The position numbers and the translations under genes were made by a program. Under the pieces are notes generated by a model. That model had not been told where the DNA came from. It made no database searches and worked only from the letters and a program-made list of their open reading frames with translations. This document shows, one piece after another, positions 18,202 to 43,036 of a stretch of DNA of 64,000 nucleotides (within the stretch, counting starts at the first letter, position 1; each line of letters begins with the position of its first letter). The stretch is from Rickettsiales bacterium (GTDB lineage Bacteria; Pseudomonadota; Alphaproteobacteria; Rickettsiales; UBA1997), in contig JAGAUJ010000003.1 in assembly GCA_017620845.1 (NCBI GenBank), forward strand, positions 46,136 to 110,135, written 5' to 3'.

Positions 18202-18617
18202 TATAATCTATCATATGCATCACTAATTAATATTACATCCTTAAAACCACTATCATTAAGTTTGCCAACAATACTTAATACATTTCCATAATTATTTCTT
18301 CTATCTGCTATAACATAAATTTTAATATTTTTATCTTTTAATGACACTTTATCAACAACTTTAATTAAATCATTAATATGTATTGCTTTATTATTAACAA
18401 AAACACTTCCATCTTTTTTTAATACAACCTTTATAGGATCTTTTTCAAGAACTGTTATTTTTGCATTAGCAGGTGGTAATTCTATATCTATATTACCAAA
18501 CAATGCTTGATTCGGAACCATAAAAGCAACTAATATAGAAAATATAATATCTATAAATGGTGTCATATTTACATTAACTTCTTCTAAATCTGTATTCTTT
18601 TTTATAATTCGTCTCAT
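18201..18617 (-). CDS. tolR: Tol-Pal system protein TolR (ExbD/TolR family)
   Basis: 138 aa with the ExbD/TolR N-terminus (INVNMTPFIDIIFSILV) and a single TM helix. It follows tolQ. Confidence 0.85.
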   Translation of the reverse strand: MRRIIKKNTDLEEVNVNMTPFIDIIFSILVAFMVPNQALFGNIDIELPPANAKITVLEKDPIKVVLKKDGSVFVNNKAIHINDLIKVVDKVSLKDKNIKIYVIADRRNNYGNVLSIVGKLNDSGFKDVILISDAYDRL

Positions 18618-18622
18618 AAAAA

Positions 18623-19315
18623 TTAATCCATTTCTTTTGATAAAATACTTAAAACTTCTAATTTAAAATTTTCCAATTCTTCTTCATAATTATTAATTTG
18701 TGATTTTATAAAATAATATGCAGCAGTCGCTGGAATTGCGGTTAACATACCAACTATTGTTGTTACAAGTGAAGAACTAATACCAGGTGCTATTGTTGTA
18801 AGTGTAGCATCTTTCATTATAGAAATTGCCTTAAAAGCAGAAGATAAACCCCAAGCAGTTCCAAATAAACCAAGCAATGTAGAGGTTGTGCTAACAATTA
18901 ATAAAAAACTTAAACCACCTTTTATTTTTTTTAAAGATCTATTAATAGCAACACTCATGACATCATACAATCTGTCTTTTAAAGAATTTTTTCTACCAAC
19001 ATCATTTGTTTTTATAATATTTTGAACATTTGAGTTTGTCCACTCTTGCATTGCAGATATAAAAACAACAATAGATGGACATTTTGTGTTGTTTTTTACT
19101 TTTTGATAAATATCCTCCAACATATCACCAGACCAAAATAATTTTTCAAATTTTGATGTTTTTATTGACATTAATTTAAATTTAAAAAACTTTTCAAAAA
19201 TCAATGTCCAAGAAAATATAGACATACCTATTAAAATAAATAATATCGCCTTTGTTATAAAATCTGAATGTAGTAGGGTTGCAAATATTTGTAAAGTTAT
19301 ATTTTGTGTATTCAT
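18623..19315 (-). CDS. tolQ: Tol-Pal system protein TolQ (MotA/TolQ/ExbB family)
   Basis: 230 aa with three TM helices and the conserved C-terminal channel region (GLFGTAWGL...IAPGISSSLVTTIVGMLTAIPA). Confidence 0.9.
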   Translation of the reverse strand: MNTQNITLQIFATLLHSDFITKAILFILIGMSIFSWTLIFEKFFKFKLMSIKTSKFEKLFWSGDMLEDIYQKVKNNTKCPSIVVFISAMQEWTNSNVQNIIKTNDVGRKNSLKDRLYDVMSVAINRSLKKIKGGLSFLLIVSTTSTLLGLFGTAWGLSSAFKAISIMKDATLTTIAPGISSSLVTTIVGMLTAIPATAAYYFIKSQINNYEEELENFKLEVLSILSKEMD

Positions 19316-19384
19316 TTTTCTTGTATAAATAATTTAATTATTTAATATAATATTATCTATAATAACATATTTTGCAATAAAAAA

Positions 19385-20383
19385 ATGAAGAAATTTTTAT
19401 TTATATGCAATAAAGGAGAAGATGAAATTAGAATTGATAAGTTTGTTCATAATAATATTGTAAAAAATGATAATTATAAAACATTGTCAAGAAGAAAAAT
19501 ACAAGAGTTTATAAAAGGAAGTATGTTAAAAAAAAACAATGAAGTTTTTAATGATAATACATATAAAATAAAAACTGGAGATATTGTAGAAATAGAAATA
19601 TACGAAAATAAAGAAATAAAACCAGAAAAACAAAACATACCATTAAATATTGTTTATGAAGATGATGATTTATTAATTATAAATAAACAGGCTGGTTTAA
19701 TAACTCATCCAGGTGCTGGAAATTATGATAATACATTAGTAAACGCCCTACTCTTCTATTGTGGAGACAATCTATCAAATATAAATAACCCAATAAGACC
19801 TGGTATAGTCCACAGGTTAGATAAAGATACAACTGGGTTAATGGTTGTAGCAAAAAACAATCACACACATGAAATATTAAAACAACAATTAAAAGATAGA
19901 ATATTAAAAAGAAAATATAATGCTATAATATGGGGAAATATTGTCCCACCACAAGGTATAATTGAAGGTTATATTAATAGATGTAAAACAAATAGATTAA
20001 AAATGGAATTAACAAAAGATAATACTGGTAAATACTCCTTAACTAATTATAAAACTTTAGAAAATTATGGAAGTGTAGCAAGTTTAGTTGAATGTGAGTT
20101 AGATACTGGAAGAACACATCAAATAAGGGTTCATTTTAGCAGTAAAAAACACCCATTAATTGGTGATTATAATTATGGTGGAAATTTAAGAAAAATAAAA
20201 GGTGAAGAAAATAAATATAAAACTTTTATAGAACAATTCCCAAGACAAGCCTTACACTCAAAAGTTATAAAATTTATTCATCCAAGAACACAAAAAGAAA
20301 TGTTTTTTGAAAGTGATTTACCACAAGATATGAAAGATTTAATAAATAATCTTAAATTATTAAACAATGTTAACAAATATTAA
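19385..20383 (+). CDS. rluD: RluA-family 23S rRNA pseudouridine synthase (RluD-like)
   Basis: 332 aa with an N-terminal S4-like domain, the catalytic motif HRLDKDTTGL and TGRTHQIRVH. Confidence 0.85.
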   Translation: MKKFLFICNKGEDEIRIDKFVHNNIVKNDNYKTLSRRKIQEFIKGSMLKKNNEVFNDNTYKIKTGDIVEIEIYENKEIKPEKQNIPLNIVYEDDDLLIINKQAGLITHPGAGNYDNTLVNALLFYCGDNLSNINNPIRPGIVHRLDKDTTGLMVVAKNNHTHEILKQQLKDRILKRKYNAIIWGNIVPPQGIIEGYINRCKTNRLKMELTKDNTGKYSLTNYKTLENYGSVASLVECELDTGRTHQIRVHFSSKKHPLIGDYNYGGNLRKIKGEENKYKTFIEQFPRQALHSKVIKFIHPRTQKEMFFESDLPQDMKDLINNLKLLNNVNKY

Positions 20384-20873
20384 TCATTTAATAATTATAA
20401 TATAAATAAACTACCCCTGATACAAGTATAGGGGGTATTATTGGAATAAAATTTAATATACACCAATCCAACCACCACACAAACATAACTTAACATAAAA
20501 CTTTACTATTTTTTTAATATAACACTTTAAAAACCACCCATCCACCACACATAATCTAAAACAATACTTGTTAATAAATCTGTTAATAACTCTGTAAATA
20601 ACCTTGTTTATTAAATTGTTAATAAATATTTATTAACACATTTACAACAATTATTAACAATAAAAAAATATATTTATTAACATGTTAATAAATTATTAAA
20701 AGTTATTAACAAGTTGTTAATAACTTGTTTTTTTATATTAAATAACATCCTTTAATTGTTAATAATTTTGTTAAAAAATAATAATTAACATTTTAACAAA
20801 CTAAATATAAAATATAAAACCATATAAAATATTGATTTAATTTATTTTTTATTATTATTGACTTTTTAATAGA
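20384..20873. other. Candidate chromosomal replication origin (oriC) region
   Basis: 490-bp non-coding gap containing a dense motif array, two long palindromes and two CCACCACACA copies (20472-20481, 20542-20551). It coincides with the + strand C>G to G>C switch and with the gene-orientation switch. See findings. Confidence 0.45.
20570..20765. repeat. Array of 10 perfect GTTAATAA/TTATTAAC motifs, extended consensus (T/A)TGTTAATAA
   Basis: Forward copies start at 20570, 20582, 20618, 20684, 20716 and 20758. Reverse copies start at 20630, 20651, 20674 and 20703. There are also several 7/8 copies. The array includes a 22-bp palindrome (20672-20693) and a 27-bp palindrome (20700-20726). Confidence 0.95.
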
Positions 20874-20912
20874 TTGTGGTTTACTTATCATAGTTTACAC
20901 AACATCAATATT

Positions 20913-21437
20913 ATGAAAGAAAAAATAAAAATATTTTTAATAAATAGTTTTAAACAAATATCTAATTTTATACAAAATTTATATTTAAATATTTCACAAA
21001 AAATTAAAGTTTCATTTAAAAAATGTAAAGAAGGTGAGGAAAATTTAAATACTTTACTTATATATTGGTGTGTAATTCCATGTATATTATATTTATTTAT
21101 ATTAAAATTTACCAATTGTAAATTTATTTTAAATATAATTGATTTGTTTATGTTAATATTAACATTATTGGATTTATACTTTATTTCAAAAACCTTAAAA
21201 ATACATCCGGAATACAATACTGAACTAATGAGAGAATTAGAAAAACAAAATTACTATAAAACACTTGATGAAAAACAATTAAAAGAAGAAAAATTAAAAG
21301 AAAAGAAAGATAATACAAAAAAATTTTTCTATAAATTATTAGCATTAAAGAATAGTGAAAAAACAGATATCTATAAAATTGTTAAATGTTTTGTAATTTT
21401 AATATTATTAGTAGTATTAAAAAGAATTTTTTTATAA
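20913..21437 (+). CDS. Hypothetical membrane protein
   Basis: ATG at 20913 (the ORF track starts at 20874 with a non-ATG codon). It has two or three TM helices, a Lys/Glu-rich loop and no recognisable motif. It lies directly upstream of the pilB-like gene. Confidence 0.55.
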   Translation: MKEKIKIFLINSFKQISNFIQNLYLNISQKIKVSFKKCKEGEENLNTLLIYWCVIPCILYLFILKFTNCKFILNIIDLFMLILTLLDLYFISKTLKIHPEYNTELMRELEKQNYYKTLDEKQLKEEKLKEKKDNTKKFFYKLLALKNSEKTDIYKIVKCFVILILLVVLKRIFL

Positions 21438-21447
21438 GGAGTAATTA

Positions 21448-23334
21448 ATGAGCGAAGAAACAACTGCAACTGAAAATATTATAGATACACAAAAAGAAAA
21501 TATTGAAACAAAAAAAACACAAGAAAAGCAGGTTGAGAATAAAACTGAAGAAATTGTAGAAGATCAAAAAATTACAAAAAAAGAGAATATACAAGAAACA
21601 AAACAAGAAGATGGCACAAAAAAACAAAAAGTAAATATTATTGATGAATTAATAAAAAAACAAATAATATCAAAAGACCAAGTTGAAGTTGCTTTAAAAG
21701 AACAGAAAAACACAGGAAACAAAGAAGATATAGCAGCAATTTTGGTTAGAATGGGTTTTATTAGTGATAAAACACTTTCTGAAATATTAAATGCTAATAC
21801 TGACGTAAAAAATCTTGATTTAAAATCTTTAATTATAGATCAAAATCTTGTTAGAAAAATCCCAAAAGGATTTGCTTTACAAAATAAAGTTATAGCAGTT
21901 GGTTTGGTAAAACAAACTGTTACAGTTGCTGCAACAGATATATTTAATATTATTGTTTCAGATCAATTAAAAAGATTTTTCCCAGCAAATTATAAAATAC
22001 AATTAATTTATGCTTCTGAATCAGATATAACAAATGCTATTGATAGATATTATGATTATGATATGTCTATTGATGGTATTTTAAAAGAAATTGAGGGTGG
22101 TGCATTAGTTGGAGATGAACAACAAGCAATGCAGGGTGACTATAAAAGCCCTATGGTGCGACTTGTTGATGCTATTTTAACAGATGCTGTTAGAATAGGA
22201 GCATCAGATTTACATTTTGAGCCAGAAAATTTCTTTTTAAGATTAAGATATAGAATTGATGGTAAAATGGAGCAAATTAAGGCTTTTCATAAAGATTATT
22301 GGAGTTCTATTGCAGTAAGAATTAAGATTATGGCTGGTATGAATATTGCTGAAACAAGAAAGGCGCAAGATGGTAGAATTAATGCACAAATTTTAGGAAG
22401 AAATATTGATTTTAGGGTATCAAGTCAACCCACTGTTGATGGTGAAAATATAGTAATGAGAATTTTGGATGAAAAACAATCAATATTAGATTTAGATAAA
22501 TTAGGTTATTTTCCAAGAACGCAAAATATTATAAAAAAATGTATACAAAGACCAGAGGGAATAGTTATTATAACAGGTCCAACAGGAAGTGGTAAAACAA
22601 CAACACTTTATACTGTTTTAAGTATGATAAATAGTATTGAAAAAAATATAATGACTTTGGAAAATCCTGTGGAATATAGAATTCCTTTAATAAGACAAAC
22701 AAGTATAAATCCAGAAATTGGTGTAGATTTTGCAGATGGTATAAGAACTTTGATGCGACAAGACCCTGATGTAATATTGGTTGGTGAGATTAGGGACAGA
22801 GAAACAGCGATTGCGGCAGTTCAGGCTGCTATGACTGGTCACCAAGTATTTTCATCTTTGCATACAAATGATGCTTTTTCTGCTATTCCAAGACTTATGC
22901 AGATAGGTGTTGAACCTTATTTATTATCTGGTTCTTTAATATGTGTAATTGCACAAAGGTTAGCAAGAAAATTGTGTCCGCATTGTAGAAGAAAAAGACC
23001 AGTAACAGAACAAGAAAAGACAATAATAAGTAGAATTTTAGGAGAAAAAATTGCATCCAAAGTTACAGAGTTATATGAAGCGGTTGGGTGTGAGAAATGT
23101 AGAGGTAATGGATTTACTGGACGAATGGCAATAGTAGAAATTATAGATGTAGATAAAGAGTTGGATGAAATGATAGTTAGAAGAGCAACAAAAAAAGAAA
23201 TGACACAATATTTAAATAATAACGGTTTTATATCTATGCAAATAGATGGTGTTCAAAAGGTTGTAATGGGTTATACAACTATGGATGAGTTAATGAGAGT
23301 TGTTGATTTAACTTCTGTTTTGGATGTAAAATAA
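21448..23334 (+). CDS. pilB: Type II/IV secretion (type IV pilus assembly) ATPase, GspE/PilB family
   Basis: 628 aa with an AAGGAG RBS at 21436-21441 and a T2SSE_N/MshEN-like N-domain. It has Walker A GPTGSGKTTT (from about 22576), Walker B DPDVILVGEIRD, a His box and the tetracysteine motif CPHC...CEKC typical of PilB/GspE rather than PilT. Confidence 0.85.
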   Translation: MSEETTATENIIDTQKENIETKKTQEKQVENKTEEIVEDQKITKKENIQETKQEDGTKKQKVNIIDELIKKQIISKDQVEVALKEQKNTGNKEDIAAILVRMGFISDKTLSEILNANTDVKNLDLKSLIIDQNLVRKIPKGFALQNKVIAVGLVKQTVTVAATDIFNIIVSDQLKRFFPANYKIQLIYASESDITNAIDRYYDYDMSIDGILKEIEGGALVGDEQQAMQGDYKSPMVRLVDAILTDAVRIGASDLHFEPENFFLRLRYRIDGKMEQIKAFHKDYWSSIAVRIKIMAGMNIAETRKAQDGRINAQILGRNIDFRVSSQPTVDGENIVMRILDEKQSILDLDKLGYFPRTQNIIKKCIQRPEGIVIITGPTGSGKTTTLYTVLSMINSIEKNIMTLENPVEYRIPLIRQTSINPEIGVDFADGIRTLMRQDPDVILVGEIRDRETAIAAVQAAMTGHQVFSSLHTNDAFSAIPRLMQIGVEPYLLSGSLICVIAQRLARKLCPHCRRKRPVTEQEKTIISRILGEKIASKVTELYEAVGCEKCRGNGFTGRMAIVEIIDVDKELDEMIVRRATKKEMTQYLNNNGFISMQIDGVQKVVMGYTTMDELMRVVDLTSVLDVK

Positions 23335-32715: not shown

Positions 32716-32930
32716 TTTGGTTTTTTGTGTAAAATTAAAATGTGTGCTTGATTTTTTCTTTGTTTCCCATGTAATGGAAGCAAGATAATAATGATATTAT
32801 TTATTTTGTAAATATATAAGTCTGCTTGTTGTGGTATAAAAGTGATTGTTGTGTTAATTTTGTAAAATTTTACATTGTAAATAAAATATATCAAAATATT
32901 ATAACAATAAATATTTGTTATTAATAGAAT

Positions 32931-33824
32931 ATGCTAACAATAATAGCGGGGCCTTGCTCTGTTAATAAAAATAATATTGAAGAGATAGAAGAAATTTTAA
33001 ATATAGAAATTAATGGAAATAAAGTAATTTCTGGTATTAGATGTGTTGGTTTAAAATCAAGAACAATTTATACTAATAATAGTATAGATATGGGAATTGA
33101 TTTAGAAGTATTTAAATATAATCAACAAATATTAATAAGTGGCAAGTCTTATAATGAATTTGAAATAATGCCATCAATTGAGTTGGCAAAACAATTACAA
33201 GATAAATATAATTGTATCATAGCAACAGAAATTATAGAACCGGCAATTCAAATGCCACTTTTTGATAAATATTTAACTGGTTCGTTTATTCCTTGGAATC
33301 CGGCAGTAAATGCTTTGGGTTGGAATATACAACATATATCAAAATATTGTGAAAAGCGTGATAATTGGTTATTGGGTATAAAAAATCCTAAAAATTTAGG
33401 AATTTCGGTTGAAGATGTGGAAATAAATAATAAAATTGCCCCAATGGAAAAAGTTTGGTCTGGACTTGCAAGTTATTCACAATTGCCGAATGAAAGAAAA
33501 ATATTGATTCATAGGGGTGTTGATTCGGAAATGAAAAGTAATTTTAGAAGTGAATTAGTTCATAAAACGGCAATGAGAGTAAAAAATAGTGTAAGTGGTG
33601 CAAAATTATTGTTTGATCCAAGTCATTCTTTTGGTCCAAAAATGAGAGATAAAATAGTTGATGAGACGGTTGAAATAATGAAAATGAAAGATTTGTGTGG
33701 TAATTTTTTGTATGATGGAATATTGATAGAAGTTGGGACGTCTACTACTGATGCAGGACAACATATAGGTGTAAAGGAGTTAAGGGAATTGGTAAATAAA
33801 TTGAGTGAATTTAGAGAGTTTTAG
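32931..33824 (+). CDS. Divergent type I-beta DAHP synthase-like aldolase (DAHPS/KDO8PS family)
   Basis: 297 aa with IAGPCSV, GLKSRT, ATEIIEP, FDPSHSFG and ILIEV...TDAGQ, which align to family motifs including the Cys/His/Glu/Asp metal ligands. The GARN motif is not recognisable. It heads the shikimate block. Confidence 0.6.
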   Translation: MLTIIAGPCSVNKNNIEEIEEILNIEINGNKVISGIRCVGLKSRTIYTNNSIDMGIDLEVFKYNQQILISGKSYNEFEIMPSIELAKQLQDKYNCIIATEIIEPAIQMPLFDKYLTGSFIPWNPAVNALGWNIQHISKYCEKRDNWLLGIKNPKNLGISVEDVEINNKIAPMEKVWSGLASYSQLPNERKILIHRGVDSEMKSNFRSELVHKTAMRVKNSVSGAKLLFDPSHSFGPKMRDKIVDETVEIMKMKDLCGNFLYDGILIEVGTSTTDAGQHIGVKELRELVNKLSEFREF

Positions 33825-34055
33825 TATTAATAAAAATTGTAATAAATTTAGTAATTTTGTTTATGTTGTGAATACATTATAGCATCTAACCTTGTTTTTT
33901 AGTTTAATGTTATTTTTATTCTAATTTATAAAATAAAGTAAACTTATATTAAAAGCGAAGTTGTGGTTTATTAATATTAATTTTTTAAAAAAACATTTGA
34001 AATAAATAAAAATATATTATTAAATTTTCTATTAAAATAATAATATAAACAAAAT

Positions 34056-35066
34056 ATGTTAAATAATATAATTATAAAACAAAATTTAATTAATAATATC
34101 AATAATTTTATTGATTTATCAAAATTTTCAAAAGTTGCAGTTTTAACAGACGAAAATTTAATAAATTGCGGTTGGTTAGACAAATTGCAAATAAACAGCA
34201 TTATAAAAATCAAATCTGGCGAAATTAACAAAAATTTAGAAACAGTTTCACACATTTGGCAACAAATGAGTGAATTACAAATGGATAGAAAATCACTTTT
34301 AATTAATTTAGGTGGTGGTGTAGTATGTGATTTGGGCGGATTTTGCGCTTCTACTTATATGAGAGGTATAAAATTTATACAAATACCAACAACACTTTTA
34401 AGTCAAGTTGATGCTTCTGTTGGTGGAAAAACTGGTTTTGATTTTAATGGAGTAAAAAATTTAATTGGAACATTTACTGAGCCTGAAATGGTTTTAATAG
34501 ATTCTAACACTTTAACAACTTTGCCAAAAAGAGAGTATGTTTCTGGTTTAGCAGAAGTTATTAAATATGGTATTATTTATGATGTAGAATTTTTTGAATA
34601 TCTTAAAAATGACAATATAGATAATGATTATATTATAAAAAAATCTTGTGAAATTAAAGAAAAAGTTGTTTTAGAAGATTTTAAAGAAGGTGGTTTAAGA
34701 AAAATATTAAATTTCGGTCATACAATAGGGCACTCTATTGAAAGTTTATCGTTGGAAACAAAAAATCTATTATTACACGGAGAGGCTGTTGCTATTGGTA
34801 TGATTGCAGAAAGTTACATAGCAAAAGAAATTGGAAATTTGACTAATGATGAGTATGAATTAATAAAAAATATTATAGAACAATATGGTTTGCCAAGTTT
34901 TTATAATGGAGATTTAGAAGAAATATTTTTGATGTTATTTAAAGATAAGAAAAATACAAGTGGTAAAATAAAATGGGTTTTACCAAATGGAATTGGAAAA
35001 TGTGTATATGATGTAGAAGTTGATAATGATATTGTAAAAATGGCAATAAGGAGTATATTAAAATGA
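34056..35066 (+). CDS. aroB: 3-dehydroquinate synthase
   Basis: 336 aa with GGGVVCDLGGFCASTYMRGIKFIQIPTTLLSQVDASVGGKTG and metal-binding His motifs (NFGHTIGH, HGEAVAIG). Confidence 0.93.
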   Translation: MLNNIIIKQNLINNINNFIDLSKFSKVAVLTDENLINCGWLDKLQINSIIKIKSGEINKNLETVSHIWQQMSELQMDRKSLLINLGGGVVCDLGGFCASTYMRGIKFIQIPTTLLSQVDASVGGKTGFDFNGVKNLIGTFTEPEMVLIDSNTLTTLPKREYVSGLAEVIKYGIIYDVEFFEYLKNDNIDNDYIIKKSCEIKEKVVLEDFKEGGLRKILNFGHTIGHSIESLSLETKNLLLHGEAVAIGMIAESYIAKEIGNLTNDEYELIKNIIEQYGLPSFYNGDLEEIFLMLFKDKKNTSGKIKWVLPNGIGKCVYDVEVDNDIVKMAIRSILK

Positions 35067-35341
35067 ATTTAGAAGAATTGAGAATTGAAATTGATAAATG
35101 TAATAATGAAATAATAGGGGCAATTAAAAAAAGGTTTTATGTTACAAGAGAAATTGGTAAAATAAAAAAAGATAGTAATTTATCATCTTATGATAAAAGT
35201 AGAGAGGATAAAGTTATAAATAATGTTAGATTATTAGCACAAAATAGTAATTTAAATGAAGATATGATTGAAGATATTTTTAGAATTATTATGAAACAAG
35301 TTATTATAGAGCATGAGGAATTAAAAAATGCTAATAAATAA
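35063..35341 (+). CDS. Chorismate mutase (AroQ class)
   Basis: 92-aa all-helical ORF. LEELRIEIDKCNNEIIGAIKKRFYVTREIGKIKK fits the AroQ N-terminal helix. It overlaps aroB by 4 nt and aroA by 14 nt. Confidence 0.75.
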   Translation: MNLEELRIEIDKCNNEIIGAIKKRFYVTREIGKIKKDSNLSSYDKSREDKVINNVRLLAQNSNLNEDMIEDIFRIIMKQVIIEHEELKNANK

Positions 35342-36596
35342 AATAGATAACTTAAATAATGCAAAAATTGAAATTTTAGGCTCTAAAAGTTATACAAATA
35401 GGGCCTTAATTATTGCAAGTCTTACAGAAGGTAAAACAATTTTAAATAATCCACTTTATAGTGATGATACAAAGTATATGATTGAATCATTGGAAAAATT
35501 AGGTGTAAAATTTGAAAAAAGTGATAAAAAATTAGTTGTTTATGGTAATGGTGGTAAGTTTCAAGTAAATGAAAATATTGAATTATTTTGTGGATTAGCA
35601 GGAACAACAAGCAGATTTTTAACTGGATTATTAGCGTTAATAAAAGATGATATAATAATAACTGGTGAGGGTAAGATTTTAGAAAGACCAATTGGTGATT
35701 TAGTTGATGGACTGCAACAGATTGGTGCAAATATTAAGTATTTGGGTAAAAAAGGTTCACTTCCTTTAAAGGGAAATGGAAAAAATATAAGTGGCAATGA
35801 AATATCAATAAATGGTAGTGTTTCTAGTCAATATTTTACTGCACTTATGATGGTTGCGCCTTTATTGAAGGATGGATTAAAAATTAATGTTATAAGAGAA
35901 CAAGTTTCTAAATCTTATATAGATATAACTTGTGATATAATGAAATCTTTTGGTGTAGAAGTTATTAATAATAATTATAAAGAATATGTTATTAAACCAG
36001 TAAAATATAAGGCAATAGAATATAATATTGAGGGAGATTGGTCGTCAGCATCTTATTTTTGTTGTTTGGGTGCTTTAATTAATGGTGGAATAGAAATAAG
36101 TAATTTAAATAATAATTCAGTGCAAGGAGATAAACAATTTGCTAAATTAATGGAAAAGGTTGGGGCGGTAGTTGAATATAAAAATAATTCAGTTTTTATA
36201 AAAAAAGATAAAATAAGGCCCATTACTGTAAATATGGAAACAATGCCAGATACTGCTATGTCTTTGGCTGTTTTGTTATCTTTTGCAAATGGTAAAAGTA
36301 GAATAAATGGGTTGTCCACTTTAAAAAATAAAGAAAGCAATAGATTGTTAGCAATGAAAAATGAACTTGCTAAATTGTCAATAAAAACAGAAATTGGAGA
36401 TGATTATATTGTAATTTATGGTGGAAATTATCATAGAGTTATTGGGGAAATAGAAACTTATAACGATCATAGAATTGCAATGTCTTTTGCTATTGCTGGG
36501 GCGGTTATTGGTGGAGTTGAAATAAAAAATCCAGAGGTTGTAAGTAAATCTTTTCCAAATTTTTGGGAATATTTTAATAATTTAAGTAAAAAATAA
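35328..36596 (+). CDS. aroA: 3-phosphoshikimate 1-carboxyvinyltransferase (EPSP synthase)
   Basis: 422 aa with GSKSYTNRALIIASL, LFCGLAGTTSRFL, KESNRLLAM and NDHRIAMSFAIAG. Confidence 0.93.
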   Translation: MLINKIDNLNNAKIEILGSKSYTNRALIIASLTEGKTILNNPLYSDDTKYMIESLEKLGVKFEKSDKKLVVYGNGGKFQVNENIELFCGLAGTTSRFLTGLLALIKDDIIITGEGKILERPIGDLVDGLQQIGANIKYLGKKGSLPLKGNGKNISGNEISINGSVSSQYFTALMMVAPLLKDGLKINVIREQVSKSYIDITCDIMKSFGVEVINNNYKEYVIKPVKYKAIEYNIEGDWSSASYFCCLGALINGGIEISNLNNNSVQGDKQFAKLMEKVGAVVEYKNNSVFIKKDKIRPITVNMETMPDTAMSLAVLLSFANGKSRINGLSTLKNKESNRLLAMKNELAKLSIKTEIGDDYIVIYGGNYHRVIGEIETYNDHRIAMSFAIAGAVIGGVEIKNPEVVSKSFPNFWEYFNNLSKK

Positions 36597-36597
36597 T

Positions 36598-37191
36598 ATG
36601 GAAAAATATAAGAGAATTTTGTTGTTGGGTTTTAGATGTGTTGGTAAAACAACAATATCTAAAAAATTATCAAATATAATGAATATACCACTAATAGATA
36701 TAGATGAAGAGATAGAAAAAAAACAAGGTAAAACAATTACTGAAATTACAAACAATGGTGAGAATTGGGTTAGATTTAGAGAATTAGAGTTAAAAAAATT
36801 AGAGGAAGTTTTAAAAATTGATAATATTATTATTTCTGCTGGTGGTGGAGTTGGTGTAAATGATGTAAAATATGATGACAATTTTACTTATGGATATTTA
36901 CAAAGAGATTTAATAAAAAAATCAACAGATACTTTAAAAGTTTTGTTATTTGCAAATGAAAGAGTTTTAAGAGATAGATTGTATTTAAGTAAAATAAATG
37001 AAAATAATAGACCAGATTTATATAATAAAACAAATAGTATAACAGAATATATTGAAAGTAATATACAAACTATGAAAAAAAGAGAAAAATTTTATAAAGA
37101 AATGGCAGATTTGGTGTTTGATGCAAGTGATAAAGATGATTATAAAAATACTATAAATTTAATAAAAATGATTAAAGATTATGAAATTTAA
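36598..37191 (+). CDS. aroK: Shikimate kinase
   Basis: 197 aa with P-loop LLGFRCVGKTTISKKL and the ISAGGG motif. The C-terminus is extended. Confidence 0.8.
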   Translation: MEKYKRILLLGFRCVGKTTISKKLSNIMNIPLIDIDEEIEKKQGKTITEITNNGENWVRFRELELKKLEEVLKIDNIIISAGGGVGVNDVKYDDNFTYGYLQRDLIKKSTDTLKVLLFANERVLRDRLYLSKINENNRPDLYNKTNSITEYIESNIQTMKKREKFYKEMADLVFDASDKDDYKNTINLIKMIKDYEI

Positions 37192-38044
37192 AAACGAATT
37201 AGAAAAAATTGAAAATACATATTTTGGAAAAAATAAATGTATAATAATTGGCAATCCAGTAGAGCATTCTTTATCACCAGCAATGCATAATATTGCTTAC
37301 AAAAATTGCAATATTGACGATAAGTTTATTTTTGATAAAATTACAGTAAAAGAAGAAGAATTGGAGGAGTTTATTTTTGATTTAAAAGATATTAATAAAA
37401 AAACTAATTCTTTTGTTGGGTTGACTTGCACTATGCCACATAAACAAAATATAATTAAATATTTAGATGAGATAAAAAATGAAGCAAAAATAATAGGTGC
37501 TGTAAATAGTGTTTTAATTAAAGATAATAAGTTTATAGGTTATAATACAGATTGGTATGGTGTAGAGCGACCATTTATGGAAAGATGTATTAATTTAACA
37601 AATAAAAAAGTCGCCATTATTGGTGCTGGTGGCGCATCAAGATCGGCAATTTATACTTTTAAGAAAAATAATAGTGTAGTAAATATTTTTAATAGAACAA
37701 AAGAAAAGGCGGATTTGTTAGCAAAAGAATTTAACTGTAATTCTTATAATTTACAAGATATGGATGTTTTAGAAAGTAGTGATATTATTATAAATACAAC
37801 AAATGTTGGTATGGGCGAATTGGAAAATATATCGCCAATAAATACTGATGTTTTAAATAAAAATCATATAGTTTTTGAATGTATTTATAAACCAAAAGAA
37901 ACTGAATTAATTAAAAAAGCAAAAAATGTTGGTGCTACAATTATTTATGGTTGGGAAATGTTATTGTATCAAGGAGTTAAGCAGTTTGAAATATATACTA
38001 GTATAAAACCAAATATTGATATTATGAGAGGTGTGTTGTTATAA
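37181..38044 (+). CDS. aroE: Shikimate 5-dehydrogenase
   Basis: 287 aa with GNPVEHSLSPAMHN, TMPHK, NTDWYG and the NADP site IIGAGGASRSAIY. Confidence 0.88.
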   Translation: MKFKNELEKIENTYFGKNKCIIIGNPVEHSLSPAMHNIAYKNCNIDDKFIFDKITVKEEELEEFIFDLKDINKKTNSFVGLTCTMPHKQNIIKYLDEIKNEAKIIGAVNSVLIKDNKFIGYNTDWYGVERPFMERCINLTNKKVAIIGAGGASRSAIYTFKKNNSVVNIFNRTKEKADLLAKEFNCNSYNLQDMDVLESSDIIINTTNVGMGELENISPINTDVLNKNHIVFECIYKPKETELIKKAKNVGATIIYGWEMLLYQGVKQFEIYTSIKPNIDIMRGVLL

Positions 38045-38106
38045 AGATGTGTATTAAAATGTCTGTTATAGTATTGTTAATTTTGTTAAAATTATAGGTG
38101 TATATT

Positions 38107-38775
38107 ATGATAAAAATTTGTAGTGTAGTTATTGGGGAAAGTTTAGAAGAATTTTTAGATAATTTATATAAAGTTCAAGAAGTTTCTAATTTTGTTGAGT
38201 TAAGAGTTGATTATATTAAAGATTTATCAATAGAGTATTTAGATATTATTAAAAAACAAACAATAAAGGAAAATATTTTTACTTGTAGATCTATTAATGA
38301 GGGCGGAAGATTTGCGGGCAGTAAGGAAGAATTAAAAAGTATAATTTATAGAGCAAATGAATTACAATTTAATCATATTGATATTGAAATATCAATGTTA
38401 GAAAATATTAATTTTGATAATAAAAATTGTAAAATTATAGGCTCTTATCATAATTTTAATAATACACCAAATTATGATGAATTATTAAATATTTATAAAA
38501 ATATAAAACAGTATGATTTTGTAGATATTGTTAAAATCGCAACAAATGTTATAAATGATAATGATAATATTGAATTAGTTAAATTACTAATAAATAAAGA
38601 TAAAGATATTATTGTTTTAGGTATGGGAGAAAAAGGGAAAATAACAAGGATTATATCGCCTTTATTGGGTGGTTATTTAACTTTTGCATCTGTTGATAAT
38701 AATATTTCTGCTTCGGGGCAGATTTCTTTAAATGATTTAATAAAAATATATGGGGATAAATATGACTGGAAATAG
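38107..38775 (+). CDS. aroD: 3-dehydroquinate dehydratase, type I
   Basis: About 222 aa with a TIM-barrel type I DHQase layout (ELRVDY..., SYHNF, and a conserved Lys region VKIAT). The start is taken at ATG 38107 (GTG 38098 is possible). Confidence 0.8.
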   Translation: MIKICSVVIGESLEEFLDNLYKVQEVSNFVELRVDYIKDLSIEYLDIIKKQTIKENIFTCRSINEGGRFAGSKEELKSIIYRANELQFNHIDIEISMLENINFDNKNCKIIGSYHNFNNTPNYDELLNIYKNIKQYDFVDIVKIATNVINDNDNIELVKLLINKDKDIIVLGMGEKGKITRIISPLLGGYLTFASVDNNISASGQISLNDLIKIYGDKYDWK

Positions 38776-39847
38776 TTTTGGTAATTTATTTAAAATAACT
38801 ACATTTGGCGAATCGCACGGGGTCGCTATTGGTTGCGTTATAGATGGATGTCCTGCTAATATTGAAATTACAGAAGAGGATATACAAAAAGAATTAGATA
38901 AAAGAAAACCTGGGCAAAGTTCTATAACAACACAAAGAAAAGAAGAGGATAGGGTGCAAATTTTGTCTGGTGTTTTTGAGGAAAAAACTACTGGAACACC
39001 TATTATGTTGCTTATAATGAATAAGGACCATAAGTCGGCGGATTATTCTAATATTAAAGATATATTTAGACCATCTCACGCAGATTATACATATTTTAAA
39101 AAATATGGCATTAGAGATTATAGAGGTGGAGGTAGAGCGTCTGCAAGAGAAACTGCTTGTAGGGTTGCTGGTGGAGTAATAGCAAAAAAGTTTTTACAAA
39201 GTAAAGGTATTGAAGTTTTGTCTTTTGTGGAGCAAATAGGCAACATAAGAATGGATTATAATTCATTAGATGATATTTCTGTTGATAAAATTGAAAGTAA
39301 TATTGTTAGGTGTCCTGATATGGAAAAAGCAAAATTAATGATAGAATTGATAGAAAATACTAAAAATAATGGCGATTCTATTGGTGGAATTATTAAGTGT
39401 ATTATAAAAAATTGTCCTGCTGGACTTGGCGAACCTGTTTTTGATAAATTATCAGCACAATTAGCAAAAGCAATGTTAAGTATAAATGCTTGTAAGGGTT
39501 TTGAATATGGGGATGGTTTTGATTTTGTGAATAAAAGCGGTTCTAATTGTAATGATGAGTTTGTAAGTAAAAATGGTAAAATTTCTACAAAAACAAATCA
39601 TTCTGGCGGTATTCAGGGCGGAATATCTAATGGTGAAGAAATTAATTTTAGGGTTGTATTTAAACCTACTGCTACAATATTTAAGGAGCAAGATACGGTA
39701 AATATAAATGGAGAAAATGTTAAGTTTCAACCTTCTGGTAGACATGATCCTTGTGTTGTTCCGCGCGCTGTTCCTGTTGTTGAGGCTATGACTTGGTTGA
39801 CTTTGATGGATTTTTGGTTAATAAATAATGGTTTGTTGATAGATTAA
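38762..39847 (+). CDS. aroC: Chorismate synthase
   Basis: MTGNSFGNLFKITTFGESHG..., RPGQS, RPSHAD, GGGRASARET and GRHDPCV. ATG 38762 matches the family N-terminus (the ORF track starts at 38750). Confidence 0.95.
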   Translation: MTGNSFGNLFKITTFGESHGVAIGCVIDGCPANIEITEEDIQKELDKRKPGQSSITTQRKEEDRVQILSGVFEEKTTGTPIMLLIMNKDHKSADYSNIKDIFRPSHADYTYFKKYGIRDYRGGGRASARETACRVAGGVIAKKFLQSKGIEVLSFVEQIGNIRMDYNSLDDISVDKIESNIVRCPDMEKAKLMIELIENTKNNGDSIGGIIKCIIKNCPAGLGEPVFDKLSAQLAKAMLSINACKGFEYGDGFDFVNKSGSNCNDEFVSKNGKISTKTNHSGGIQGGISNGEEINFRVVFKPTATIFKEQDTVNINGENVKFQPSGRHDPCVVPRAVPVVEAMTWLTLMDFWLINNGLLID

Positions 39848-39870: not shown

Positions 39871-39904
39871 AATCTCTATATATAATAATATAGAGATTAT
39901 TTTG
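39871..39904 (+). terminator. Rho-independent terminator ending the shikimate block
   Basis: 11-bp stem AATCTCTATAT/ATATAGAGATT with a 6-nt loop, followed by ATTTTG. Confidence 0.7.
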
Positions 39905-40077: not shown

Positions 40078-40153
40078 GCGAGTGTAGCTCAGTTGGTAGA
40101 GCGCAACCTTGCCAAGGTTGGGGTCGCGCGTTCGAGTCGCGTCACTCGCACCA
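40078..40153 (+). tRNA. tRNA-Gly (GCC)
   Basis: 76 nt with acceptor GCGAGTG/CACTCGC, anticodon stem CAACC/GGTTG, loop TTGCCAA, T-loop TTCGAGT and an encoded CCA. Confidence 0.93.
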
Positions 40154-40462: not shown

Positions 40463-40724
40463 ATGGCACATACATTAACAACAAAAAAAAAATATTAGAA
40501 TTACAGCAAGAAGAACTGCTATAAATAAATCAAGAAAAAGCAGAATTAGAACTTTTTTAAGAAAAGTTGAAGATGCTGTATTGGCTAAAAATAAAGAATT
40601 GGCAAAAACAGCCTTAGTTGAATTTGAATCAGAAATAATGAAAGGCGTTTCAAAAGGTGTTTATAAAAAGAACACTGCTGCAAGGAAAATAAGAAGAATG
40701 GCAAAACAAGTTAATAGCATATAA
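40463..40724 (+). pseudogene. rpsT: 30S ribosomal protein S20 gene interrupted by a frameshift in an A10 tract (possibly still expressed)
   Basis: ATG 40463 reads MAHTLTTKKKY then TAG (40496-40498). The +1 frame from 40491 reads NIRITARRTAINKSRKSRIRTFLRKV...AARKIRRMAKQVNSI and ends with TAA at 40722-40724, which is clearly S20. The two parts join across the A10 run at 40483-40492. Removing one A gives an 86-aa S20. This gene is absent from the ORF track. Confidence 0.85.
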
Positions 40725-41632: not shown

Positions 41633-43036
41633 ATGAAAAGAACTAAAATAGTAGCTACAATAGGTCCAAAATCAGAACATCCAGAAATTTTAAAACAATT
41701 ATCAGAAGTGGGTGTTAATGTTTTTAGATTAAATTTTTCACACGGTTCTCATGAGGAGCATGGTAAAAAAATAGATGCAATAAGATCTTTAAAATTACCA
41801 GGTGCAGTAATGTTGGATACAAAAGGTCCAGAAATTAGAACCGGTGAAGTAAGAGATAAACTTTTTGTAAAAATTGGTGATAAGTTTACAATGACAACAG
41901 AAAAAGGTGTTTATGAAGATACTGGTAAAGTTAGTGTTAATTATAAAGATTTTTTAAAAGATGTAGATGTTAATGATGTTATTTGTTTTGATAGTGGCGT
42001 AATGTTTGCAAAAGCATTAAAGAAAACAAAAACAGATATAGAGTTTGAAGTGGTTAGTGGACAAACTAATATAACAACAAAAAGACACATAAATTTATTT
42101 GGTAAACCAGTTTCTTTGCCAACAGTTACAGAACAAGATTGGAAAGATATAGATTTTGGTATAGAAAAAAAAGTTGATATGATTGCTTTGTCATTTGTTA
42201 GAAGTGCAAAAGATGTTAAAGAAGTAAAAGATTATTGTATTGCAAAAGGACATAAAAATGTTCATATAATTTCTAAAATTGAAAATTTTGAAGCGACACA
42301 AAATTTAGAAGAAATAGTTGCTGAAAGCGATGGAATTATGGTTGCAAGAGGTGATTTAGCTTGTGAAATTCCATTTTCAAAAGTTCCAGCAATGCAAAAG
42401 AAAATAATTGCTTTGTGTGCTTTGTATAAAAAACCAGTTATAGTAGCAACTCAAATGTTATTATCAATGACTGATAATATACAACCAACAAGAGCAGAAG
42501 TTTCTGATGTTGCGAATGCAGTATTTGAACATACTGATGCAGTTATGACATCTGATGAAACAACAAAAGGTGTTGATCCAGTTAATGTTATAAAAGTGAT
42601 GGCAAAAATTGCAGAAGATACCGAAGATGAAATTTATAGTTGTGATTGTGATGGCGATTGTGATTGTGGTTGTCATGAAGGTAAAGAGTGCACTTGTGGT
42701 TGCCAAAGTAATGAAGGAATATTCTCTATTTTACCAGATTATACAGAAGATGTTGATGCAATAGTTGTATTAAGTGATAAAGTAGAATATACAAATAGTG
42801 TATCAAGTGCAAGATATGATTTACCAATATTTTCATTTACCACAAATGAAACAATAGCAAATAATTTACATTTAGTATGGAATACAAAACCATTCGTTAT
42901 AAAAGAAAATAATAACTTGGAAGATAATATAAAAACAATAGAAAAAACAATTAAAAAAGAATATAAAGGTATTAAACAATATATATTTGTATTTGAACTT
43001 AATGGTTCTTTAACAATACAAGTAAGAGATATTTAA
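41633..43036 (+). CDS. pyk: Pyruvate kinase (with a Cys-rich insertion)
   Basis: 467 aa with MKRTKIVATIGP, FRLNFSHG, DTKGPEIRTG, MVARGDL and TQML.SM. It carries an unusual insert, CDCDGDCDCGCHEGKECTCGC, at about 42641-42700. Confidence 0.92.
   Translation: MKRTKIVATIGPKSEHPEILKQLSEVGVNVFRLNFSHGSHEEHGKKIDAIRSLKLPGAVMLDTKGPEIRTGEVRDKLFVKIGDKFTMTTEKGVYEDTGKVSVNYKDFLKDVDVNDVICFDSGVMFAKALKKTKTDIEFEVVSGQTNITTKRHINLFGKPVSLPTVTEQDWKDIDFGIEKKVDMIALSFVRSAKDVKEVKDYCIAKGHKNVHIISKIENFEATQNLEEIVAESDGIMVARGDLACEIPFSKVPAMQKKIIALCALYKKPVIVATQMLLSMTDNIQPTRAEVSDVANAVFEHTDAVMTSDETTKGVDPVNVIKVMAKIAEDTEDEIYSCDCDGDCDCGCHEGKECTCGCQSNEGIFSILPDYTEDVDAIVVLSDKVEYTNSVSSARYDLPIFSFTTNETIANNLHLVWNTKPFVIKENNNLEDNIKTIEKTIKKEYKGIKQYIFVFELNGSLTIQVRDI

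Follow-up and report, generated by a model that had tools for sequence, protein, structure and literature searches.

The 64,000-nucleotide stretch analysed here (the window; contig JAGAUJ010000003.1 of the Rickettsiales bacterium assembly GCA_017620845.1, positions 46,136 to 110,135) carries eight genes of aromatic biosynthesis that fill positions 32931-39847 on the plus strand: a gene resembling those of 3-deoxy-D-arabino-heptulosonate 7-phosphate (DAHP) synthases (DAHPS), followed by aroB, a chorismate mutase gene, aroA, aroK, aroE, aroD and aroC. The block is intact and maintained by purifying selection. We consider it probable that these genes are an intact chorismate cluster with an accompanying chorismate mutase, which is kept by selection and was acquired as a block by the ancestor of a Rickettsiales clade. 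Acquisition as a unit is favoured because the enzymes are unlike those of other alphaproteobacteria and because the gene order is shared with distant phyla.

All eight open reading frames (ORFs) of the co-linear, single-strand block described in the original prediction were recovered with the same boundaries (Table 1). Seven of them score above the curated cut-offs of their Pfam or NCBIfam families, the exception being the first gene, and the hidden Markov model (HMM) matches span the profiles almost end to end; the dehydroquinase is of type I, as had been predicted. Signature motifs, which we take to be the catalytic residues of the Aro enzymes, are visible in the translations: SYHNF and DIVKIA in AroD (assumed by reference to the Salmonella enzyme to hold the general-base His and the Schiff-base Lys), MPHK and NTD in AroE, GESHG, RPSHAD and GRHDPC in AroC, KSxxNR, KESNR and DHRIAM in AroA, and the P-loop GFRCVGKTT in AroK. 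The chorismate mutase retains its Arg, Lys, Asp, Arg, Glu and Gln positions. In public assemblies aroD begins with ATG at 38107, with GTG at 38098 also possible, and the aroC ORF opens at 38750 with its likely start at 38762, the one used by gene callers. A public 361-aa AroC product, P0188, shows no difference from the window ORF in their alignment, which takes in 99% of the query.

Selection was gauged from the ratio of nonsynonymous to synonymous divergence (dN/dS) against L090, a relative with ~94% identical proteins (loci retrieved for comparison are designated by L numbers). The ratio is 0.06-0.45 for seven of the eight genes, including 0.22 for the DAHPS-like gene; the value of 1.0 for aroK, with a dS of just 0.019, is uninterpretable because there are too few changes. 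Synonymous divergence between the window and L090 is uneven along the region. It amounts to 0.08-0.24 in six of the eight aro genes and to only 0.02-0.04 in aroK and aroA, and parA, parB, tmk, truB and a 462-aa gene adjoining the cluster lie at about 0.01-0.03; this mosaic suggests recombination between strains inside the cluster.

The four start/stop overlaps that had been noticed are real and measure 4 nt between aroB and the chorismate mutase gene (35063/35066), 14 nt between the latter and aroA (35328/35341), 11 nt between aroK and aroE (37181/37191) and, given the aroC start at 38762, 14 nt between aroD and aroC (38762/38775). A single base separates aroA from aroK. Two wider gaps were absent from the original prediction, one of 53-62 nt between aroE and aroD, depending on the aroD start, and one of 231 nt between the first gene and aroB. 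The predicted strong terminator after aroC was likewise supported: the hairpin has a perfect 11-bp stem followed by a T-rich run, folds with -16.7 kcal/mol (z = -3.9), and none of 200 shuffled sequences was as stable. A consensus terminator scan gave no match at this hairpin, because its stem holds just two G-C pairs. Several weak sigma-70-like matches lie in the intergenic region after truB, and over its whole range the consensus promoter scan returned 107 matches against 88 ± 9 expected from shuffled sequences, which is no significant excess and is uninformative in such AT-rich DNA. Rfam searches of the upstream region and of the 231-bp spacer gave no match at gathering thresholds or at E <= 1, and the spacer has no significant RNA fold (z = -0.6). 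The genes from aroB to aroE, and again aroD and aroC, are closely spaced or overlap, and a single hairpin ends the block; this suggests that aroB through aroC, at least, are co-transcribed and translationally coupled. The DAHPS-like gene may be on a separate transcript, since the spacer before aroB varies among strains and could divide two transcription units.

The first gene is the most unusual member of the block. "DAHPS-like" is the proper wording for it, since its product falls below the Pfam cut-off for DAHP_synth_1 (PF00793; Table 1); on NCBIfam NF006421 it reaches 21.7 bits against a cut-off of 335. Many other members of the family have a precomputed PF00793 match. Used as a single sequence, the protein found no sequence match in the PDB, and a family profile matched the Thermotoga maritima DAHPS with E = 6e-4 at best. 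A large protein collection holds 672 homologues; the closest are unnamed rumen sequences, followed by metagenome-assembled genomes (MAGs) labelled "Rickettsiales bacterium" at ~65% identity and then by Dojkabacteria, Roizmanbacteria and other Patescibacteria at ~45-50%. Among the homologues listed, those with named NCBI entries are all labelled "hypothetical protein". When the family profile was run against 1.84 billion representatives, 56 clusters appeared at E <= 1e-30, then came a gap, and canonical DAHPS surfaced only below about 60 bits. Because so few clusters reach that level and the canonical enzymes lie far lower, we class the protein as a small, discrete, uncharacterised branch of the superfamily formed by DAHPS and 3-deoxy-D-manno-octulosonate 8-phosphate synthase (KDO8PS).

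Structure prediction and profile alignment connect this branch with the type I-beta DAHPS. The AlphaFold2 model (pLDDT 92.5, pTM 0.91) is a (beta/alpha)8 barrel as in the solved DAHPS and KDO8PS structures, and every one of the 15 top Foldseek matches is a type I-beta DAHPS (E about 1e-11, 18-22% identity, TM-scores 0.61-0.71), from Geobacillus, Pyrococcus, Aeropyrum, Thermotoga and Listeria among the top; KDO8P synthases rank after them, with 11-15% identity. Comparison by hhalign with the canonical DAH7PS (~350 aa) gives a probability of 99.8% and E = 4e-29 at 27% profile-level identity, and lines up GPCS, K-x-R-T, KN, HRG, YRN, DPSH, IEV and TD..Q. In the alignment of the family profile with the T. 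maritima enzyme, C9, R195 and H232 fall on Cys102, Arg237 and His272; the hhalign comparison with canonical DAH7PS puts E267 in the IEV motif and D274 in the TD motif. The predicted metal site Cys-His-Glu-Asp (C9, H232, E267, D274) is invariant in all 25 sequences of the family alignment, which has 58 invariant columns including the motifs AGPCS, VGLKSRT, KN.K, HRG, FDPSH, a Glu within (L/V)xE, and TD..QH. Of the motifs for phosphoenolpyruvate (PEP) and erythrose 4-phosphate (E4P), K42-S-R44-T, K151 (KN) and R195 (HRG) are kept and the arginine of G-A-R is missing. The window protein thus shares with the type I-beta enzymes (PF00793) a predicted TIM-barrel fold and the aligned ligands GPCS (Cys), DPSH (His), IEV (Glu) and TD..Q (Asp), and it differs from the ~350-aa form, which bears a C-terminal chorismate-mutase-like tail, in having no fused regulatory or mutase domain; in many DAHPS-like clusters the mutase is instead a separate neighbouring gene. 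From the fold, the profile comparison, the catalytic motifs and the position upstream of aroB we strongly infer that the protein has DAHP synthase activity.

The products of the block could then be arranged in one route. The DAHPS-like protein, as a metal-dependent type I-beta enzyme, would condense PEP and E4P to DAHP; AroB, the type I AroD, AroE, AroK, AroA and AroC would convert DAHP to chorismate, and the small AroQ-type mutase would convert chorismate to prephenate. The original prediction called the chorismate pathway complete, which it is only if the first gene truly encodes the predicted DAHP synthase. Chorismate mutase had been named as the sole downstream-branch gene in the window, and no other branch gene was indeed found in the 64 kb; tblastn with the proteins of relatives detected neither tyrA nor pheA there. 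A tyrA remnant in the 231-bp spacer was considered and rejected, the best tblastn match with relatives' tyrA and pheA having E = 0.35.

As a unit the cluster is widespread. The DAHPS-like family was sought in one genome of each GTDB species, 80 loci were fetched, and their gene order was read by tblastn of the eight window proteins. The family occurs in 121 GTDB species and heads aro clusters in dozens of genomes. A one-strand order recurs, namely DAHPS-like, aroB, aroA, (aroK), aroE, aroD and aroC with chorismate mutase, tyrA and pheA as optional members, and was seen in L009, L019, L032, L036, L038, L040, L053, L071, L075, L084, L085 and the Roizmanbacteria group; the window follows it with the mutase inserted after aroB. 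All eight genes stand in the window's order in L009, and L019 has the eight with the mutase last. The carriers include Rickettsiales MAGs, Roizmanbacteria, Microgenomates and other Patescibacteria, the complete genome of Elusimicrobium posterum and another Elusimicrobia MAG, and lake MAGs labelled Bacteroidetes. Between the first gene and aroB, the Patescibacteria examined hold chorismate mutase, prephenate dehydrogenase (tyrA) and an ACT-domain prephenate dehydratase (pheA), and the Rickettsiales relatives L009 and L012 hold only prephenate dehydrogenase (tyrA, PDH_N). Because relatives carry these genes at that place, the window block resembles a shortened form of an aromatic supra-operon with 10-11 genes.

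Contiguous aro operons and aromatic supra-operons are known from Firmicutes, Thermotogae and Archaea, and aro genes are usually scattered in free-living proteobacteria, unlike the clustered genes of the window. Those operons likewise have all or most shikimate genes on a single strand, the junctions being short or overlapping, and some of them also include chorismate mutase, tyrA and pheA. They differ from the present block in that its gene order and first enzyme are specific to the unit headed by the DAHPS-like gene, and in its host, which belongs to the Rickettsiales, whose best-known representatives are without the pathway (PMC5615194).

This genome is not alone in having the arrangement: besides recurring in several phyla, it is ordinary in close relatives, being seen in L009 and L090 and, in part, on the short contigs L011, L012 and L092. 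A strikingly variable place within the rumen clade is the junction of the first gene with aroB. The two share 4 nt in L092 and lie 30 nt apart in L005, which belongs to a sister lineage; in L090 and L091 a 2.8-kb insert occupies the junction and encodes a 745-aa protein (L090 7778-10603). Other genes are found at the same place on the opposite strand, a 739-aa ankyrin-repeat protein in L012 (2134-4353) and an unrelated 191-aa gene in L011 (1259-1834), which makes the junction an insertion hot spot within the clade. The sister lineage (GCA_017475895.1; L005-L008, L088/L089) keeps all eight genes split 4+4: the DAHPS-like gene, aroB, aroE and aroD form one piece, and the chorismate mutase gene, aroA, aroK and aroC lie beside tolQRAB-comM on another contig of the same assembly. 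In the window the tol/comM genes are located ~15-20 kb upstream of the aro cluster. L012 has aroB and the chorismate mutase gene, which overlap by 4 nt in the window, fused as one 401-aa ORF (4530-5735).

Comparison of the individual enzymes points away from the Alphaproteobacteria. The reference taxa were mislabelled chromosomes and chromids in PLSDB. AroC of the window is 44-50% identical to the enzymes of Methylobacterium, Sphingomonas, Paracoccus, Sinorhizobium and Shinella (Paracoccus 45% by tblastn), 54% to that of E. coli, 58-64% to those of Bacteroidota and 55-64% to those of cluster-bearing Patescibacteria and Elusimicrobia; the best 120 AroC matches in the large collection include no alphaproteobacteria besides Rickettsiales MAGs. 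AroA is 24-27% identical to the enzymes of Thioclava, Ruegeria, Tritonibacter and Shinella, 40% to those of E. coli, Klebsiella and Sulfurovum, and 40-47% to those of cluster-bearing phyla, so that it is closer to the E. coli type than to the alphaproteobacterial type, the labels of these 5-enolpyruvylshikimate 3-phosphate (EPSP) synthase classes being ones we presume from general knowledge. AroB shows 35-37% identity to alphaproteobacterial proteins versus 41-51% to those of cluster-bearing phyla. The type I AroD has no alphaproteobacterial match in PLSDB, and its nearest named homologues outside the clade are from Parcubacteria (51%) and Patescibacteria (43%). The list of aromatic genes behind a recent survey of alphaproteobacterial and Rickettsiales genomes (PMC10847448: aroF COG3200, aroB, aroQ COG0757, aroE, aroK, aroA, aroC) covers the same seven steps with a type II DAHPS (COG3200) and a type II dehydroquinase (COG0757), from which the I-beta-like synthase and type I AroD of the window differ.

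In a neighbour-joining tree of AroC the alphaproteobacterial references form a 96%-supported clade that excludes the window (the Paracoccus branch was disregarded as a wrong-frame ORF with 19.8% identity), and the window's clade stands with Bacteroidota, Elusimicrobia and Patescibacteria. In each of six single-gene neighbour-joining trees the sequences labelled Rickettsiales cluster with one another, their Gamibacteraceae core having 92-100% support, and the same other lineage groups appear in one tree after another. This pattern fits a unit that has evolved mostly within lineages after rare transfers. It was suggested earlier to test by gene phylogenies for a common non-alphaproteobacterial donor; the AroC tree sets the window apart from the alphaproteobacterial references, and no single donor emerges from the trees. 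The suggested compositional check gave no sign of transfer, the GC content and GC skew of the block being equal to those of the flanks, so that any transfer must be old. The horizontal acquisition as a unit that had been proposed gains support from the foreign-like enzymes and gene order, in an amended form: since the arrangement is ordinary in close relatives, the transfer would be ancient, clade-wide and compositionally invisible.

Several observations count against the reading proposed above, some touching the history of the block and some its first enzyme. The deep nodes of the AroC tree have only 38-47% support and the whole Rickettsiales group 28-68% in the six trees, the candidate sister groups differ by gene with low bootstrap values so that no donor lineage is identified, AT-rich and fast-evolving sequences are prone to misplacement in trees, and many taxon labels of the MAGs (for example "uncultured Gammaproteobacteria") are as deposited and unverified. 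The Rickettsiales amino-acid pathways have been concluded to be generally vertically inherited, with only aroK flagged for non-orthologues in the aromatic pathway (PMC10847448). Vertical descent from an alphaproteobacterial or Rickettsiales ancestor, the likeness to other phyla being due to fast evolution, AT bias or outward transfer from Rickettsiales, would agree with that conclusion, with the single group of Rickettsiales-labelled sequences in all six trees and with a block composition free of anomaly. We nevertheless regard it as unlikely, given a type I instead of a type II dehydroquinase, an I-beta-like instead of a type II DAHPS, an AroA far nearer to cluster-bearing phyla than to alphaproteobacteria, an AroC outside the well-supported alphaproteobacterial clade, and a DAHPS-like family with far greater diversity outside the Rickettsiales than within. 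For both the first gene and AroD the nearest homologues beyond the Rickettsiales come from Patescibacteria, as would be expected had this genome alone acquired the block recently or had a Patescibacteria fragment been joined to it by assembly or binning. That explanation is very hard to maintain, since the same block and flanks occur in independent assemblies on contigs of up to 167 kb and possibly 288 kb, block and flanks do not differ in GC content or skew, and the cluster also has Rickettsiales-type surroundings in relatives with 62-94% identity.

The observations that concern the first enzyme are the missing counterpart of the arginine of the W-I-G-A-R motif throughout the family, an insertion of ~25 residues after K-S-R-T, and the many Patescibacteria in which nothing of the aro set lies within 10 kb of the DAHPS-like gene, so that the family is possibly not always in the shikimate pathway. 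Lone copies were seen, for example, in L045 (a complete 680-kb Parcubacteria genome), L022, L050, L065 and L083, and in the Dojkabacteria locus L068 the gene lies between a class II aldolase-like gene and an apparent short prephenate dehydratase. These features, with the scores under the Pfam and NCBIfam cut-offs and the 231-bp gap before aroB, would suit another PEP-utilising aldolase (a sugar-acid synthase, for instance), the pathway then starting from import or from a DAHPS encoded elsewhere. We think this improbable: the metal- and PEP-binding motifs are invariant, the structural matches to DAHPS are better than those to KDO8PS, the gene lies directly upstream of aroB or of chorismate mutase-tyrA-pheA-aroB in dozens of unrelated genomes, with an actual overlap in L092, none of the clusters contains another DAHPS, and its dN/dS is low. 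No paper linking DAHP synthase with Patescibacteria was found.

Acquisition by the clade ancestor would have the following course, whose direction and timing we infer from the sequence comparisons. Most likely an ancestor of the Rickettsiales clade took up the supra-operon as a block, which possibly displaced the usual alphaproteobacterial enzymes; the cluster would then have been inherited vertically while its composition blended with that of the host genome. Later reshaping would include the loss or relocation of tyrA in the rumen lineages, the insertion of genes at the DAHPS-like/aroB junction and the 4+4 split in the sister lineage.

The presence of the pathway in this organism has to be seen against its clade. 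Rickettsia proper is without a shikimate pathway (PMC5615194), as the original prediction held for obligate intracellular Rickettsiales. The sister lineage GCA_017475895.1 has been placed in "Candidatus Gamibacteraceae" (Castelli et al. 2024, PMC10847448), and the same study names GCA_017620845.1 as a second rumen member (1.02 Mb, GC 0.255) and reports that Gamibacteraceae keep amino-acid biosynthesis, which makes the pathway less surprising in a reduced Rickettsiales genome. It is doubtful, if somewhat less so than for the alternatives above, that the cluster owes its retention mainly to the provision of a rumen protist host with chorismate-derived compounds. A genome of about 1.0 Mb keeps the whole pathway under purifying selection, the samples are ruminant gut assemblies, and Endomicrobia endosymbionts of termite-gut flagellates offer a parallel in conserving aromatic amino acid synthesis (PMC11257099): they too are reduced-genome bacteria of a gut-protist habitat, from a different phylum, and free-living Elusimicrobia (L040, L053) bear the same cluster type as the window. 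Set against this, the present MAGs have no known host (PMC10847448), exporter and branch-pathway genes are absent from the 64-kb window, the tyrA of relatives is missing from the window's cluster, and self-sufficiency accounts for the same facts. No paper linking Deianiraea with aromatic amino acids was found, and a preprint on rumen ciliate symbionts has nothing on these Rickettsiales MAGs.

Table 1. Positions of the aro block genes and bordering elements in the window
Feature	Position	Strand	Evidence or remark
Upstream intergenic region, truB to first gene	32716..32930	+	presumed promoter site
DAHPS-like gene, 297 aa	32931..33824	+	DAHP_synth_1, 24.2 bits (cut-off 25.5)
AT-rich spacer, 231 bp	33825..34055	+	junction variable among relatives
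aroB, 3-dehydroquinate synthase	34056..35066	+	TIGR01357, 345 bits (cut-off 305), full length
Chorismate mutase gene, AroQ-class, 92 aa	35063..35341	+	Pfam CM_2, 72.5 bits (cut-off 27)
aroA, EPSP synthase	35328..36596	+	TIGR01356, 417 bits (cut-off 287)
aroK, shikimate kinase, 197 aa	36598..37191	+	Pfam SKI, 78.8 bits (cut-off 22)
aroE, shikimate dehydrogenase	37181..38044	+	TIGR00507, 232 bits (cut-off 200)
aroD, type I 3-dehydroquinate dehydratase	38107..38775	+	TIGR01093, 157.5 bits (cut-off 139.3)
aroC, chorismate synthase, 361 aa	38762..39847	+	NF003793, 506 bits (cut-off 321)
Intrinsic-terminator-like hairpin with T-rich tail	39871..39904	+	fold compared with shuffled sequences

The window has a GC content of ~25%, and its flanking genes (gyrA, uvrA, tolQ-tolR-tolA-like-tolB, a porin-like gene, murB, murC, dnaK, parAB and ribosomal protein genes) indicate a diderm proteobacterium with a reduced genome of the Rickettsiales type. 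Its proteins are deposited at NCBI as "MAG: ... [Rickettsiales bacterium]" under MBO4956268 to MBO4956326 (exact-sequence match; AroB is MBO4956296.1 and AroA MBO4956298.1); flanks and label bear out the strongly reduced Rickettsiales-type genome that had been predicted. The block is found with identical flanks in several independent ruminant-gut assemblies. Downstream of the terminator lie a tRNA-Gly gene (40078-40153) and then rpsT (S20; 40463-40724), whose reading frame is broken in the window: ten consecutive A (about 40483-40492) lead to an in-frame TAG after 11 codons, and the remainder of S20 reads on in the +1 frame. L001, another assembly of the same organism whose first 17,561 nt compared are identical to the window, differs at this homopolymer, where it has 9 A and an intact 86-aa gene, so the break is either a homopolymer assembly error or a slippage-prone tract. 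In the pyruvate kinase (41633-43036) a cysteine-rich insertion (SCDCDGDCDCGCHEGKECTCGCQ) separates the catalytic from the C-terminal part.

A 654-aa ORF without a Pfam match (6280-8244, minus strand) is paralogous to the 745-aa insert protein of L090 (8314-10551; 29% identity, E = 3e-23). The two proteins share an NGCCSYW motif with His- and Asp-containing segments upstream, and our impression from the sequences is of a cysteine-protease-like effector family. The sign of the GC skew flips at about 18500-21500, from about -0.27 to above +0.28, and the skew is strongly positive from ~21 kb on; the coding strand switches with it, and GC falls to 16-20% around 20.5-21.5 kb. This switch could be a replication origin or terminus or a plain strand switch; DnaA-box-like matches near it are not enriched.

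The finding brings no new kind of biochemistry, and its most interesting residue is an uncharacterised DAHPS subfamily together with the apparent replacement of a whole enzyme set. We tentatively suggest that Deianiraeaceae, Diomedesiaceae and Gamibacteraceae swapped their alphaproteobacterial genes wholesale for a mobile aromatic supra-operon, common to them and to Patescibacteria and Elusimicrobia, whose first enzyme would represent this subfamily; the proposed traits of the latter are the absence of the G-A-R arginine, an extra loop and the lack of a regulatory domain, and it would be missed by standard annotation and by COG-based surveys. Because homologues of the first enzyme are a "hypothetical protein" in the named NCBI entries listed and the enzyme lies outside the orthologous groups used in surveys, carrier genomes would seem to be without the entry step. 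If the suggested replacement is true, aromatic biosynthesis is underestimated by pathway reconstructions for Patescibacteria and these Rickettsiales, and a full operon for aromatic amino acids is carried and exchanged by ultra-small bacteria that have been taken for auxotrophs. The occurrence of this operon in many Patescibacteria contradicts the simple view that aromatic amino acid synthesis is beyond all of them. For Rickettsiales evolution, where a recent study argues for vertical inheritance and late loss (PMC10847448), the enzyme types and gene order of the chorismate pathway in this clade point rather to replacement by a foreign block.

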